Virus record (IMG/VR): IMGVR_UViG_3300044513_000589
Direction: 5' to 3' (one strand)
DNA: 20,000 nt
Source of the DNA: an uncultured virus (IMG/VR IMGVR_UViG_3300044513_000589)
Lineage: Duplodnaviria; Heunggongvirae; Uroviricota; Caudoviricetes
The notes beneath the pieces are model-generated. The model saw nothing but the letters and a program-made list of their open reading frames with translations. It was not told where the DNA came from and ran no database searches. The translations under genes and the position numbers were made by a program. This document shows positions 14,814 to 19,469 of this stretch, one piece after another. Every line of letters starts with the position of its first letter. Within the stretch, counting starts at the first letter, position 1.

Positions 14814-16001
14814 ATGGCAGGTCAAGGGCTCACTTGGGCACAGTTCAATAGAAGTGGTAGATACGAAAACAACCTGAGGGAGATCCACAAGAAGTCTGTT
14901 GCTGGATCCCCTCTGCTTTTAGTTGAGCCTGTAAGTGGACTGGAAGGTAGTGGTATTCACCTTACCTTTGATGAAATGATATTTACCGTGGGAAAGGTTG
15001 AATTTCAGTTCAATCCTTCCGACTATACTGAAGATGAGTTTGTACAGAAGGTCACTGCTCGTGTACCTGACAGTATGAAAAAAGTTTCCATTACCTTTAC
15101 TCATGGGCAGAAGAAAGTTGGTAGTGGAAAAGTATTAAAAGGACCAGAGTTTGGTGGCAAACCCCCTGCTGGGGCAACGTTGACCGCAAGGTGGGGATAC
15201 CTTGCCACGTTGACCGAGGTTTTGGATCCGAGTTACAAACTTGATACTCCTAGTTCACAGGAGATGGGTGAGTTGATGTTCATCAATGATATGAACACTG
15301 CGATTGCGGAATCCATTGACGCAGAACTGGCTAACCCCAACTCTAGAATGGATAAGAACTGCCCTGGCATCACAGTCAAGGTAGGTAGTCATGAGTTTGA
15401 TCATGTTGTTGGTGTAAATAAGGTTGCTGGTACACCCAAAGCTGACCTAGCACTGGTAGCATGTGTCAATAAAAAACTTAAGAACGTTGGATTCCTATCT
15501 CACAAGATGGGTAGTAAGGCAAAGGACTTCGGACAGTGGTCTGGTCTTACTGCTAAGGCAGGAAAAGTTATCTCTGACCATCCTGAGGTACTTAGATTCA
15601 TTGCTGATGTCAAGGCATGGACTGATGCCAATCCTGAGTGGGCAAAACCATCTGGTGTTGCTGTTCGTAGGGAGATTCAGGACAGAGATCTGATGATGTA
15701 TGCTGTCTATGGACCTGACTTTGGTAAGAAGTTTGGGACTGAGAACGTCCACGCTGTACTACAGGGTAATCCCAAATTAAATAAGCGTGGAGATGTATAT
15801 GTCATGACGGCTTCTCACGTCAATGATAATGGCGATGACTTGACTGGTGATTTTATCCCTGCTTTGGTGGCAATGAAGAAGGGTGCTTGGGAGAAGATTC
15901 AAGATCCCAATGCGAAAGGAGTAAGATCCGACTTTGGTATTCGTGGTATGAGAATATCCATCTACACCTACGGTGGTAGAAAGATTACAGATGAAATCTG
16001 A
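14814..16001 (+). CDS. Hypothetical protein with possible PD-(D/E)XK restriction-endonuclease-like domain
   Basis: Upstream helix Glu (MGEL), then TPKADLALV...GFLSHK, a PxxD...SxK arrangement. Confidence 0.55.
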   Translation: MAGQGLTWAQFNRSGRYENNLREIHKKSVAGSPLLLVEPVSGLEGSGIHLTFDEMIFTVGKVEFQFNPSDYTEDEFVQKVTARVPDSMKKVSITFTHGQKKVGSGKVLKGPEFGGKPPAGATLTARWGYLATLTEVLDPSYKLDTPSSQEMGELMFINDMNTAIAESIDAELANPNSRMDKNCPGITVKVGSHEFDHVVGVNKVAGTPKADLALVACVNKKLKNVGFLSHKMGSKAKDFGQWSGLTAKAGKVISDHPEVLRFIADVKAWTDANPEWAKPSGVAVRREIQDRDLMMYAVYGPDFGKKFGTENVHAVLQGNPKLNKRGDVYVMTASHVNDNGDDLTGDFIPALVAMKKGAWEKIQDPNAKGVRSDFGIRGMRISIYTYGGRKITDEI

Positions 16002-17194
16002 TGGCAAACGTAACGCAACTAAAACACCTAGAGCATATTGAAGATGAGATGCTGAACTATGGCGTCGAAGGATGTCATGCGGCAGTGTCTGCTATGAGGG
16101 AACTTCTCCGTATGCTTGGTAAGAAGCCATCTACGGGGTTCCTACAGACCAAATGGGACGGTGCTCCCTCTGTTGTTTGTGGCACAGATCCTGAGTCGGG
16201 GAACTTTTTTGTTGGCACTAAGTCTGTCTTTAATAAAACTGAGCCTAAACTGTGTTTTACTGAGGAATATATCGATGCTATGTACTCTGGTGACTTGGCA
16301 GAGAAACTGAAGTTCTCTCTCAAGTATTTCTCTCAGTTAGGTATTGATGGTGTGGTCCAGGGAGACCTCCTGTTTACCTCAGACAAGAAATATGAAAAGG
16401 TAGATGGAGAAGACCTCATCACTTTCAGACCTAATACTATTACCTATGGTATACCTAGGGATCATCCCATCGGTAAGGTCGTTGATAGAGCCAAGATAGG
16501 AGTAGTTTTCCACACTCACTATGTTGGTGATGATCTACCTAACATGGCTGCTCAAGCAGGCGCGAAGGTTAAGGGATCGATTGATGTTGCGGTCATCGGA
16601 AATGATACTCCCTACCATGACATTGCCGTAGACAGAAACATTCTTACGAAGTTCAAAAATAATGTTGATGTTATTGAAAGAATGTGCCAGATTTGTGGTC
16701 CTTTTCTTGACAATCTGGTTGATAATATCGGTACCACTGGTGATGCTAAATTCCACGTCGCATCTTACCTCAAACAGTTCTTTAACAATGAGATTAAGAA
16801 CGCTAGAAACGTGGGTGATCCTACCAGAACTCTCAAGGCTCTTGGTGAGTTCTACCATAGCAAGATGCTGAAGGAGATTGATAAGGTCAAGTCTGATAAA
16901 GGTAAGACCAAGAAGAGGGAACTTCTCTATACAGGTCTGGAATACCTAGAGAAGAATGCTAAAGAGTTTCGTGCCATGCTAGCCCTATATAAAAAACTAC
17001 AGGAGAACAAGCAACTGGTCATTGATCAGCTTGATCATCTGGAAACATTTAGAACTCTGGTCCAGACGGACAAAGGATATAAAGCCACGAACCCTGAAGG
17101 GTATGTGTTACATCACAATGGCGACATGATTAAGTTGGTGAACAGAATTGAGTTCTCTTACATCAACTTTACCCTGTCAAAAGAATGGAAGTAG
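16001..17194 (+). CDS. DUF6267-like protein with ligase/nucleotidyltransferase-like motifs
   Basis: HLEHIED, TKWDGAP (KxDG), FFVGTKSVFNK, QGDLLF, PEGYV and IKLVNR. Confidence 0.75.
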   Translation: MANVTQLKHLEHIEDEMLNYGVEGCHAAVSAMRELLRMLGKKPSTGFLQTKWDGAPSVVCGTDPESGNFFVGTKSVFNKTEPKLCFTEEYIDAMYSGDLAEKLKFSLKYFSQLGIDGVVQGDLLFTSDKKYEKVDGEDLITFRPNTITYGIPRDHPIGKVVDRAKIGVVFHTHYVGDDLPNMAAQAGAKVKGSIDVAVIGNDTPYHDIAVDRNILTKFKNNVDVIERMCQICGPFLDNLVDNIGTTGDAKFHVASYLKQFFNNEIKNARNVGDPTRTLKALGEFYHSKMLKEIDKVKSDKGKTKKRELLYTGLEYLEKNAKEFRAMLALYKKLQENKQLVIDQLDHLETFRTLVQTDKGYKATNPEGYVLHHNGDMIKLVNRIEFSYINFTLSKEWK

Positions 17195-17736
17195 TAGATT
17201 ACAAGTGCGTGTACTTTACGTTTGGTAGGTTCCAACCTCCAACAATAGGACACGAGGAAAATTTCAAAGCAGTCAAAGGTAAGGCAGGTACCTGTGACTG
17301 GTATATCTACTTGTCTCAGACTGTTGATAAGAAAGGTAGCAACCCCTTGACACCAGATAGGAAACTCTTCTATGCTAAGAAGATGTTCCCCCAGTTGAGG
17401 AACAATATCAGGAGTGGTCCTAAGGATCCAGTGGCTATCTTACAAGAGTTACAAGCAGAAGGTTATGATGATGCCGTCTTAGTTGTCGGCTCTGACAGAG
17501 TACCCGCAATGCAATGGATTAAAAAGTACAATGGCAAGGACTTTTATTTTAGAAAACTCGAAGTTATCTCTTCAGGCGAACGCGATGCTGACGGTGACAC
17601 TTTTGCTATTTCTGGCACAAAAATGCGACGCGCAGCGGTAGCAGGAGACTTCAAAACATTCCGTCAAGGCATACCTAAAGCCTTATCTGATAAGGATGCT
17701 AGGGAACTTATGGAAGAGATCCGAAAAAATATGTGA
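17185..17736 (+). CDS. Cytidylyltransferase-like (HIGH superfamily) nucleotidyltransferase
   Basis: FTFGRFQPPTIGH, NPL, VVGSDR and ISGTKMR. Confidence 0.9.
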   Translation: MEVVDYKCVYFTFGRFQPPTIGHEENFKAVKGKAGTCDWYIYLSQTVDKKGSNPLTPDRKLFYAKKMFPQLRNNIRSGPKDPVAILQELQAEGYDDAVLVVGSDRVPAMQWIKKYNGKDFYFRKLEVISSGERDADGDTFAISGTKMRRAAVAGDFKTFRQGIPKALSDKDARELMEEIRKNM

Positions 17737-17744
17737 CATAAATA
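17737..17744 (+). promoter_or_regulatory. Late promoter (NATAAATA)
   Basis: CATAAATA immediately after the stop at 17736, 22 nt before ATG 17767. Confidence 0.75.
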
Positions 17745-17766: not shown

Positions 17767-18855
17767 ATGAAATCTTTCAGCGACTTTAAGAAGACCAGAG
17801 AAGTTGCGGAGCAAAGTGTTCTCCGTGATAAATACTATCGTGAAGAAATTTATAAAGTAGGTGAGTGGGTACTCACCGAGTCAGGCAACGTCGGTAAGAT
17901 CGTTCGCCGTGGTCCTAACTATGTTATCTGTGTCACCGCTGAAGATACTTCTTTCCGCACCTGGGTGAGGGACATCAAAGAAGTATTTGAAATTGGAACA
18001 GACGCATACCGCGAATATGTAATGTCACTTACTCCTGGTCAGAAAGTTCAAAAGCCTGCTGGGAGTGTCAAAGTCAAACAAGTAATCCCCACAGACCCCA
18101 AAAAAGATAAGATGGACAATCACGAGAGTCTGGTACACGCAGTCGCTGCTCACCTCAGTTCCAAATCGGAATCTTGGAGATATGATAAGTCTCCTATCGC
18201 TGGTAACAAGAACGTCAAAGGTCTTGGTGCCGCAGGTGTAGGTGGTGGTGACGCCCCTGGCATGAAACTTGCTGAACCCAAAGGTACAGAAGGTAAGCCA
18301 GCAGTCAAGAAACCTCAGCACGCTTGCGCTACTAAGGTTGAGCACTCGGAGTGGGGCGAGGGTAACTGTATTAAAGAGATGCACACTCTCGATGAAGCGG
18401 GCAACATCTCTCACTATGATGTAATGTTCGAGCATGGTCTTGAGCAGAACGTACCTGTTCAGGTCCTGAACGTTCTGGTCAGCGAGATGCATGAGCACGC
18501 TATCAACATCGAAAAGAACCAGGAGGTTCTGGACGAGAAGAAAAAGAAACTTGATCCTGTCGGTAAAGAAGACGGCGACGTTGACAACGACGGTGACAAA
18601 GATTCTTCTGATTCCTATCTTATGAATCGTCGTCGTGCTGTTGCTAAGGCAATGGGCAAGAAGACTAAGAAGGAAGAAGTAGAACTTCAAGACGAAGGTA
18701 TGAAGCAGGCACGCGATAATGTTGGTGCCTCTACTTGCTGGGACGGTTATGAAGCCAAGGGTACTAAAAAGAAAGGCGGTAAGGAAGTTCCTAACTGCGT
18801 GAAGAAAGAGAGCACCTTCTCCGACTGGAGAAAGGAGATCTCTGAAAAAAAGTAG
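17767..18855 (+). CDS. Lys/Glu-rich modular late protein, probable internal head protein (0-frame product)
   Basis: Late promoter upstream; N-terminus MKSFSDF; short modules (DGDVDNDGD, CWDGY...VPNCV). Ends GAA AAA AAG TAG. Confidence 0.8.
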   Translation: MKSFSDFKKTREVAEQSVLRDKYYREEIYKVGEWVLTESGNVGKIVRRGPNYVICVTAEDTSFRTWVRDIKEVFEIGTDAYREYVMSLTPGQKVQKPAGSVKVKQVIPTDPKKDKMDNHESLVHAVAAHLSSKSESWRYDKSPIAGNKNVKGLGAAGVGGGDAPGMKLAEPKGTEGKPAVKKPQHACATKVEHSEWGEGNCIKEMHTLDEAGNISHYDVMFEHGLEQNVPVQVLNVLVSEMHEHAINIEKNQEVLDEKKKKLDPVGKEDGDVDNDGDKDSSDSYLMNRRRAVAKAMGKKTKKEEVELQDEGMKQARDNVGASTCWDGYEAKGTKKKGGKEVPNCVKKESTFSDWRKEISEKK

Positions 18856-18911
18856 CCTCGGCGGTAGTTGATATCATGCCCGAGATCGATGATCCATCGG
18901 GCAACCCCGAG
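18833..18911 (+). other. Candidate programmed -1 ribosomal frameshift signal
   Basis: In-frame A_AAA_AAG (18846-18852), internal AGGAG (18833-18837) and downstream stem-loops (18857-18911). The -1 frame runs open into ORF 18876. Confidence 0.75.
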
Positions 18912-19469
18912 CAAACTTCCGCCAAGAAGATGCCCAAAGTCCCTCAACAGACTGAGGCAAAATGTAATAAGTCTGGTGAAGGAAAAGAGTGTCCTCTTCA
19001 CGGTAAGCACGCTTGCCCTGAACTAAAGGAGGAGACTATTGATGAGAAGAGAGGATTGTACGCCAATATCCATGCTAAAAGAAAGCGTGGAGAGTCTCCT
19101 GCGAAACCAGGCGATGATGATTATCCAGCAAAGGATGCGTTTAGAAAATCCGCCAGAACAGCCAAGAAAGAATCCTACAGATTAGCCGAGGTTGCTCCTT
19201 CTGGTGCTAAGTATGAGCGCATGGTGAAGCATATTAAAAAGTCCTACGCTAAGGACGGTAAGCTCACCAAGGATGAGAAGTCTATTGCTTATGCTACCGC
19301 TTGGAAGCATAAGAATAAGATGAAGAAAGAACACTGCGACATGGAGTTTGATGTCGTAGCACATCAGTGTGGTCACTGTAATGCTACTGGGTATCATCCA
19401 ACTGGCGAGAAGTGTGATCAGTGTGATGGTAAAGGCACACTTCAGACGGCTAACGATGGAGTTGATTGA
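18876..19469 (+). CDS. Lys/Glu-rich modular protein with C-terminal CxxCxxxG zinc-finger pair; probably the -1 frame extension of the previous ORF
   Basis: The frame is open from 18846. Modules CPLHGKHACP, GLYANIHAKRKRG, YERMVKHIKKSY...IAYATAWK and CGHCNATG...CDQCDGKG. Confidence 0.8.
   Translation: MPEIDDPSGNPEQTSAKKMPKVPQQTEAKCNKSGEGKECPLHGKHACPELKEETIDEKRGLYANIHAKRKRGESPAKPGDDDYPAKDAFRKSARTAKKESYRLAEVAPSGAKYERMVKHIKKSYAKDGKLTKDEKSIAYATAWKHKNKMKKEHCDMEFDVVAHQCGHCNATGYHPTGEKCDQCDGKGTLQTANDGVD

Follow-up and report, generated by a model that had tools for sequence, protein, structure and literature searches.

The window, the whole stretch of 20,000 nucleotides that was analysed, comes from an uncultured virus (IMG/VR record IMGVR_UViG_3300044513_000589). 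Judged by its open reading frames and their database matches, it derives from a T4-like cyanophage; the labels given to its replication genes are a reading of translations, not database matches. The nearest record, G001, matches ORF1 of the window at 99%. The cassette lies at the end of this ORF, the gene after a 'cytidyltransferase', and its neighbors are the cytidyltransferase gene and a virion gene of phrog_8198/1645. ORF1 encodes 362 aa (17767-18855) and its last codons, read from the sequence, are TCT GAA AAA AAG TAG. After the TGA at 18843-45, the -1 frame is open for 207 codons, up to 19469, and passes through ATG 18876. The predicted products are a 362-aa 0-frame protein and a 567-aa fusion. 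A preliminary description of this DNA had placed A_AAA_AAG in phase before the TAG, with the -1 frame leading from the TGA into the ORF at 18876; these coordinates all check out, and the two product lengths it gave agree with those recomputed here (Table 1).

Table 1. Features of the frameshift cassette and its surroundings in the window.
Feature	Position	Strand	Remarks
Late promoter-like site, T4 type, CATAAATA	17737..17744	+	22 nt before ORF1
ORF1, 0-frame product	17767..18855	+	362 aa; Lys/Glu-rich modular late protein; orthologue of P-HM1 gp163 / P-HM2 gp164
N-terminus like T4 capsid-targeting sequence (CTS)	17767..17811	+	residues 4 and 7 aromatic; V-x-E first occurs at residue 15
Internal CTS-like motif	18817..18846	+	ends in gp21-type I-x-E directly before the two slippery lysines
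SD-like stimulators (candidate)	18827..18837	+	GGAG 18827-30 (15 nt before heptamer); AAGGAG 18832-37 (8 nt)
-1 frame stop TGA	18843..18845	+	just 5' of heptamer; dispensable (L007/L044 lack it)
Slippery heptamer A_AAA_AAG	18846..18852	+	0-frame phase, directly before TAG
0-frame stop TAG	18853..18855	+	adjoins heptamer
-1 frame extension (predicted)	18846..19469	+	205 new residues; elsewhere annotated as own ORF from ATG 18876
3' stimulatory structure (predicted)	18860..18923	+	outer stem 18860-69/18914-23; inner hairpin 18877-18903
Alternative register (predicted)	18873-77 with 18889-93	+	holds covarying pair 18873/18893
Cys/His knuckle C-x8-C-x2-H-x4-C	18963..19016	+	Cys/His invariant in alignment A1; putative metal-binding module
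Basic module	19047..19175	+	in -1 extension here; in 0-frame ORF in P-HM1, P-HM2 and Syn1
CxxCxGxG-type zinc-finger-like module	19341..19454	+	end of extension; weak Pfam DnaJ_CXXCXGXG / Anti-TRAP match, E 0.03, below cut-offs

Both ORF1 and its extension are built as mosaics from short modules, some basic and others of Cys/His type. The best PHROG match of ORF1 is phrog_22379 (E 7e-155), and residues 15-129 match the C-terminal part of the long cyanophage 'cytidyltransferases' (phrog_395 positions 212-327). No Pfam family was found for ORF1, the AlphaFold2 model was uninformative (pLDDT 39.5), a tblastn search with residues 252-298 returned no match, and the ESM Atlas gave just one match, at 0.75, to a hypothetical cluster. 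The gene had been held not to belong with tail-assembly chaperones or with capsid and tail genes, and in keeping with this, PHROG and Pfam yielded no chaperone, capsid, tail or Ig-like family. Across loci, the extension adds about 32 to 218 new residues among the matches listed. By tblastn, the basic module of the extension is also matched in the small, podovirus-sized phages S-RIP1, S-RIP2, P-GSP1, HTVC168P (a Pelagibacter phage) and CRP-810 (a Roseobacter phage).

The 'cytidyltransferase' is split in the window. Its catalytic part is a 183-aa ORF (17185-17736), and the first part of ORF1 (17767-18150) corresponds to what is the C-terminal domain in the long form. In S-PM2, S-RIM32 and Sf-CH11, the gene of the small C-terminal domain is annotated as a ribonucleotide reductase subunit, a label that is probably wrong. 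Further upstream, a 395-aa ORF (14814-16001) before the DUF6267 gene matches only PHROGs of unknown function (phrog_13937 and phrog_27473).

The window contains GAAAAAAAGTR once, where 0.04 occurrences would be expected by chance, and 9 of 200 shuffles contain it too. We take the decisive evidence for the cassette to be conservation rather than such chance statistics. With no more than the downstream module as query (alignment A1, which starts at the Met), a search found 29 metagenome and 34 IMG/VR loci, of which 62 were kept after exclusion of L028, a locus with no upstream DNA. The sequence GAAAAAAAG is retained in 62 of these 62 loci, as well as in P-HM1, P-HM2 and the window. The spacer between heptamer and Met is 17, 20 or 23 nt only, and preserves the frame in 65 of 65. 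Not all loci are independent, several being near-copies of the window; once one junction with an N is removed, there are 44 distinct junctions, with the 0-frame stop at once in 38 and one codon later in 6. Inside ORF bodies, Glu-Lys-Lys is never written GAA AAA AAG (0 of 24) and Lys-Lys is written AAA AAG in 45 of 404 cases, both counts being from related, non-independent sequences. A third lineage with the cassette was reached by protein search (L135 and L136).

Two wider pattern scans extend this set. In the first, the heptamer and the V-E-V/I-M-P motif were fixed and any gap of 6-21 nt was allowed, so the heptamer is present by construction, but phase and stop are not. At least 120 matches were found. 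Among the 120 listed, the gaps are only 8, 11, 14 or 17 nt, all in -1 phase, and the 0-frame stop lies within 0-1 codons of the heptamer in every one; TAA, TAG and TGA are all used. The second scan did not require the heptamer, and of its 120 listed matches, 81 are cassettes and 16 in-frame fusions, while 23 are unrelated or unclassified sequences, the last two groups being divided by a lysine-content rule. In four of the listed cassettes, TCA or GCA takes the place of GAA ahead of the slippery lysines, so that the slippery A is retained though the Glu is lost to Ser or Ala. The heptamer, the adjacent stop and the -1 phase of the next ORF, which the preliminary description had proposed to look for in homologous loci, are conserved.

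Ten cultured isolates, picked by junction similarity and covering five or more genera, all carry the cassette: S-PM2, S-RIM32, Syn1, S-H9-2, Sf-CH11, Sf-FP1, Sf-FR1, MED4-213, P-HM1 and P-HM2. At the same locus it is absent from six other cyanophages (Syn9, S-SSM7, P-SSM2, Sf-FS3, S-ShM2 and ACG-2014h). These data bear on the reading in which the junction is a homopolymer error of sequencing or assembly, or a recently broken gene, and the true gene is continuous. In-frame relatives do exist, as that reading would have it, but the 16 listed are entirely without the slippery site and have the same downstream module. Moreover, the same seven-A junction recurs in the ten isolates and in 100 distinct junction sequences among the matches listed, and contigs (not raw reads) from two DNA runs of different studies bridge the site without gap or indel; in the small parts of two metatranscriptome assemblies that were searched, the junction is not covered. 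Sequencing error is ruled out because all 62 module-found loci keep GAAAAAAAG with frame-preserving spacers, and the broken-gene form of this reading is likewise refuted by the conservation data, leaving it a negligible probability.

Six cassettes (L344, L346, L350, L387, L397 and L431) have a longer spacer of 50-53 nt from heptamer to V-E-V/I-M-P, and it encodes an additional Cys-x-Cys module. The same module follows the CTS in the stand-alone gene of ACG-2014h, and these cassettes are possible intermediates between the stand-alone and frameshifted layouts. The cytidyltransferase gene of P-SSM2 has A_AAA_AAG in phase two codons ahead of its stop (L079:5306); the -1 frame shuts after 10 codons, and this heptamer is probably due to chance. 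At L003:2929 and at L084 (reverse strand), an A-rich lysine run is followed by ATGA, in which the stand-alone module overlaps the stop of the upstream gene; the two frames are here, too, in a -1 relation.

None of the ten isolates has an annotated join. The extension is a separate ORF or, in Sf-FP1 and MED4-213, absent from the annotation, and all 120 of the longer protein-database homologues listed for it are called from the Met of ATG 18876. In every record the annotation is one of separate genes, and the A-run could simply encode Glu-Lys-Lys ahead of a downstream ORF for which ribosomes initiate or re-initiate at Met 18876. The module does stand alone in ACG-2014h, Syn9 and S-SM1. The preliminary description had noted that ATG 18876 lacks a clear SD; this proved to be weak evidence, as an interrupted SD-like site (-6.4 kcal/mol) lies 5' of it and the ATG of ORF1 itself has none (-1.3). 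Yet a non-coding spacer would not vary solely by threes, remain open and retain the same residues. The Met is internal in the 16 in-frame fusions among the 120 matches listed, the heptamer outlives the loss of the Glu codon, and the predicted hairpin buries Met 18876. The stand-alone versions also bring their own CTS-like start, which here sits in the ORF1 frame, and no late promoter is found near the junction. Two independently started genes are accordingly an improbable description of this locus, though frameshifting may be accompanied by some additional independent initiation.

On the 5' side, the AGGAG and GGAG described earlier at 8 and 15 nt before the heptamer are present at 18833-37 and 18827-30. 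An internal SD stimulates -1 frameshifting when it lies 9-14 nt upstream (PMC5009743), and the candidates of the window are just outside this range. The commonest spacings in the family are 8, 9, 11 and 12 nt. The anti-SD was taken from a Synechococcus rRNA operon (L090), and of 100 distinct junctions, 91 pair with it more strongly than their synonymous recodings do; at seven control positions further upstream, the number is 35-50 of 100. SD strength does not exceed the synonymous expectation in the 20 representatives examined first, nor in the window's own clade. By the comparison over the 100 junctions, the SD-like site appears to be selected across the family.

The slipperiness of A_AAA_AAG is tied to a single lysine tRNA (PMC5009743). 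On the one Synechococcus chromosome checked (G002; 44 tRNA matches), which is not known to be the host's, a single tRNA-Lys with anticodon UUU was found. The same genome entry includes a 194-kb contig (L082, contig C1 of G002) with cyanophage-type genes and four tRNAs, which looks like a phage genome binned with Synechococcus.

On the 3' side, the minimum-energy fold of the window has -27.2 kcal/mol (z -3.24), and none of 200 shuffles is as stable; against synonymous recodings, z is -4.2. Over 20 loci, the folding minimum falls exactly at the 3' side of the heptamer (offset 0), with -21.3 kcal/mol against -7.0 to -12.4 elsewhere; in the wider set of 100 loci, the values are -17.4 against -7.4 to -10.7. 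Compared with synonymous recodings, the mean z is -3.1 in 20 representatives and -2.4 in the 100 loci, 75 of which have z < -1.65. The other 25 do not reach this value, and in the S-PM2 clade the 3' structure is weak (z up to +0.8). The inner hairpin proposed earlier (TGCCCGA 18877-83 with TCGGGCA 18897-903, with a GATC/GATC core) is in the minimum-energy fold, where 18877-18903 covers the region of the Met codon. The outer stem proposed with it, CTCGG with CCGAG, fared differently: its sequence is present, but the fold instead pairs GGCGG 18860-64 with CCGCC 18919-23, and just 29.6% of its cells are paired in 38 distinct homologues. It was rejected as a family feature.

Covariation had been named in the preliminary description as a further mark of a functional stem, and one fully compensatory pair was found, while the outer stem as drawn there is specific to the window's lineage. 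The helix that holds the pair is 91% paired in the first set; of 38 rows, 19 have A-U at this pair and the other 19 G-C, and none has it broken. The pair links an Ile/Val change to a silent Asp change. On a tree of the 32 complete ORF1s (12 of the 44 are incomplete and were excluded), it changed at least 4 times, a count that recombination could inflate. A second register, favored by the window and incompatible with the first, is 65% paired with several compensations, and registers vary between clades. RNAalifold on 42 junctions gave no consensus structure, only 2 pairs. Since the two registers are mutually exclusive, RNAalifold finds no consensus and the S-PM2 clade is weakly structured, stability is better conserved than register. 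From the comparisons with recodings, a 3' hairpin is under selection across the family. An H-type pseudoknot through the loop CCTGA, which seemed possible in the P-HM1 clade, was rejected, its complement being missing in other clades (alignment A2).

The heptamer, its phase, the stop, the 3' structure and the 5' SD-like site are hence conserved beyond what the protein sequence demands, which supports the dnaX/IS3-type reading put forward earlier. Three sequence features of that class were found (the heptamer in phase, a coding -1 frame and 3' structure), and by these the cassette would work like dnaX and IS3. A programmed -1 ribosomal frameshift of this type in a late gene of T4-like cyanophages is very probable. 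In the proposed mechanism, the ribosome would be held by SD pairing behind and by the hairpin ahead, and two tRNA-Lys(UUU) would slip from AAA AAG to AAA AAA. The slipped ribosome would bypass the adjacent stop and add 205 residues to a minority of chains. That tandem -1 slippage of two tRNA-Lys yields a minority 567-aa chain is held with high confidence. The frames could also be joined by the polymerase, if slippage on the A7 run put an extra A into some transcripts. In favor of this are the homopolymer at the site and the many IS elements that rely on transcriptional slippage instead (PMC5009743). The run, however, is always seven A (six and a wobble A) closed by a G in fixed codon phase. 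It has a stop next to it and, at a distance suited to ribosomes, an SD-like site, all of which are features of translation. Slippage by the polymerase is thus very unlikely, a shade more so than two separate genes.

In E. coli dnaX the frameshift truncates the protein, whereas the cyanophage shift would bypass a stop and extend it; the gene is unrelated, and the cyanophages have no single family-wide stem-loop. What the two share is an identical A_AAA_AAG with an SD-like site 5' and structure 3' (PMC5009743), and a single tRNA-Lys(UUU), here from the one Synechococcus genome checked. Like orfA/orfAB of the IS3 family, the cassette has a bacterial -1 signal and would give a short 0-frame product and a longer transframe fusion (PMC5009743), but the cyanophage gene is late, encodes no transposase, and its frames overlap solely at the slippery site. 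The phage G/GT chaperones and the capsid or tail extensions (lambda, T7/T3 gene 10, A2, A118) also combine a late gene with a -1 shift near its end and a minor, C-terminally extended form, and among Ig-like phage extensions, in-frame and out-of-frame versions coexist in relatives, as they do here (PMC5009743, PMC10885494). The cyanophage gene differs in having no match to these families and an extension of basic and Cys/His modules, and its place between a cytidyltransferase gene and a virion structural gene is not that of a tail-assembly chaperone, which is found between the major tail and tape-measure genes. Judged by these sequences, the cassette is not a tail-chaperone or a capsid/tail-extension frameshift.

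Several features connect the gene with late expression. Promoter-like sites were compared with TATAAATA, the eighth base of which, beyond TATAAAT, we take to belong to the consensus. All 34 loci with a complete ORF1 start have such a site 22-24 nt before ORF1, with no more than 1 mismatch (27 are exact), and in the same loci no late promoter with fewer than 2 mismatches is found near the junction. TATAAAT is the late promoter consensus of PMC3037559, and P-HM2 genes 164 and 165, the orthologues of ORF1 and extension, are both classed as late in PMC5082946.

Other features point to the phage head. In the T4 CTS, residues 4 and 7 serve targeting and residues 8 and 10 processing, and L/I-x-E is the cleavage motif of T4 gp21 (PMC9026906). 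Compared with T4 IPI, IPII and IPIII, the ORF1 start fits at positions 4 and 7 and does not fit at the processing positions 8 and 10; ORF1s of the S-PM2 type have no CTS-like start. The stand-alone genes in ACG-2014h, the phage-like contig of G002, Syn9 and S-SM1 have a CTS at the start, followed by a downstream-like motif. Counted as motifs alone, predicted L/I-x-E cleavage sites number 7 in ORF1 (2.7 expected, p 0.0125), 55 in eight ORF1 orthologues (25.5 expected) and 3 in the extension (1.0 expected, p 0.067), and the excess sits at module edges. Three syntenic S-SM1 proteins, SSM1_190/191/192, were detected in virions with 25, 10 and 7 counts (PMC3037559, Table S8). Two of these genes are similar to ORF1 in sequence (E 1e-19 and 7e-13), and in the third the junction motif was recognized by eye.

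The likeness to T4 IPI-III and gp67/gp68, which are cut by gp21 (PMC9026906), therefore lies in a CTS-like N-terminus, L/I-x-E motifs, a late promoter and virion-detected homologues. The cyanophage protein is much longer and mosaic, and its sequence was compared with the T4 internal proteins at the CTS; the available text of PMC9026906 mentions no frameshift for the T4 internal proteins. On this model, the CTS-like N-terminus would target the protein into the prohead core as cargo, where both chains would enter and gp21 would cut at L/I-x-E between the modules. With an I-x-E site immediately ahead of the slippery lysines, the frameshift would determine in what proportion the basic and Cys/His peptides encoded downstream are packed compared with those encoded upstream. 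If the cut at this site is made, the outcome would be released peptides rather than two intact isoforms. A dosage role also fits the basic module, which comes before the shift in P-HM1, P-HM2 and Syn1 but after it in the window, and the range of about 32-218 residues in the extensions. That the protein is prohead-core cargo cut by gp21, with the frameshift dosing its downstream peptides, has about an even chance of being right.

Alternatively, the frameshift may be real in a protein that acts in the infected cytoplasm, for example by late nucleic-acid or metal binding, and is not processed head cargo. S-PM2 carries the cassette, and its p142/p143 are not among the virion proteins of Table S8 of PMC3037559. 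The CTS match is partial, and virion detections of such proteins may be co-purification, according to PMC10665884. Against a cytoplasmic role stand the enrichment of L/I-x-E at module edges, the virion detection of three syntenic S-SM1 homologues (PMC3037559), and the late promoter and late expression. It is an alternative held at less than even probability.

A further reading builds on head cargo and resembles the logic of Gag/Gag-Pol: a core-targeted polyprotein would be cut by the prohead protease to basic and Cys/His peptides, and a -1 shift after a cut site would dose the downstream ones. This is tentative, and we consider it less likely than not. Within it, modules that move between the 0 and -1 frames, and between frameshifted, in-frame and stand-alone layouts, would make the slippery site an evolvable dosage dial for head cargo.

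The literature searched holds no description of a frameshift in this cyanophage cassette; most subscription papers and the genome-wide frameshift catalogues were outside its scope, and a prior listing in the catalogues is possible. The mechanism is a textbook one, which limits the surprise. What appears to be new is its use in a cyanophage late gene, probably to dose cargo peptides packed into the head. If true, programmed frameshifting in T4-like cyanophages would extend beyond tail-chaperone and capsid/tail genes, and would occur in S-PM2, Syn1, P-HM1/2 and at least 120 IMG/VR contigs. It would also mean revising a whole group of annotations, which either list the extension as a small gene of its own or omit it. 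Existing infection proteomes of S-PM2 or P-HM2 offer a test both of recoding by cyanobacterial ribosomes and of the role of a lysine-rich, mosaic late protein. Should the Gag/Gag-Pol-like reading hold, the dosage dial may be sensitive to the single lysine tRNA of the host.
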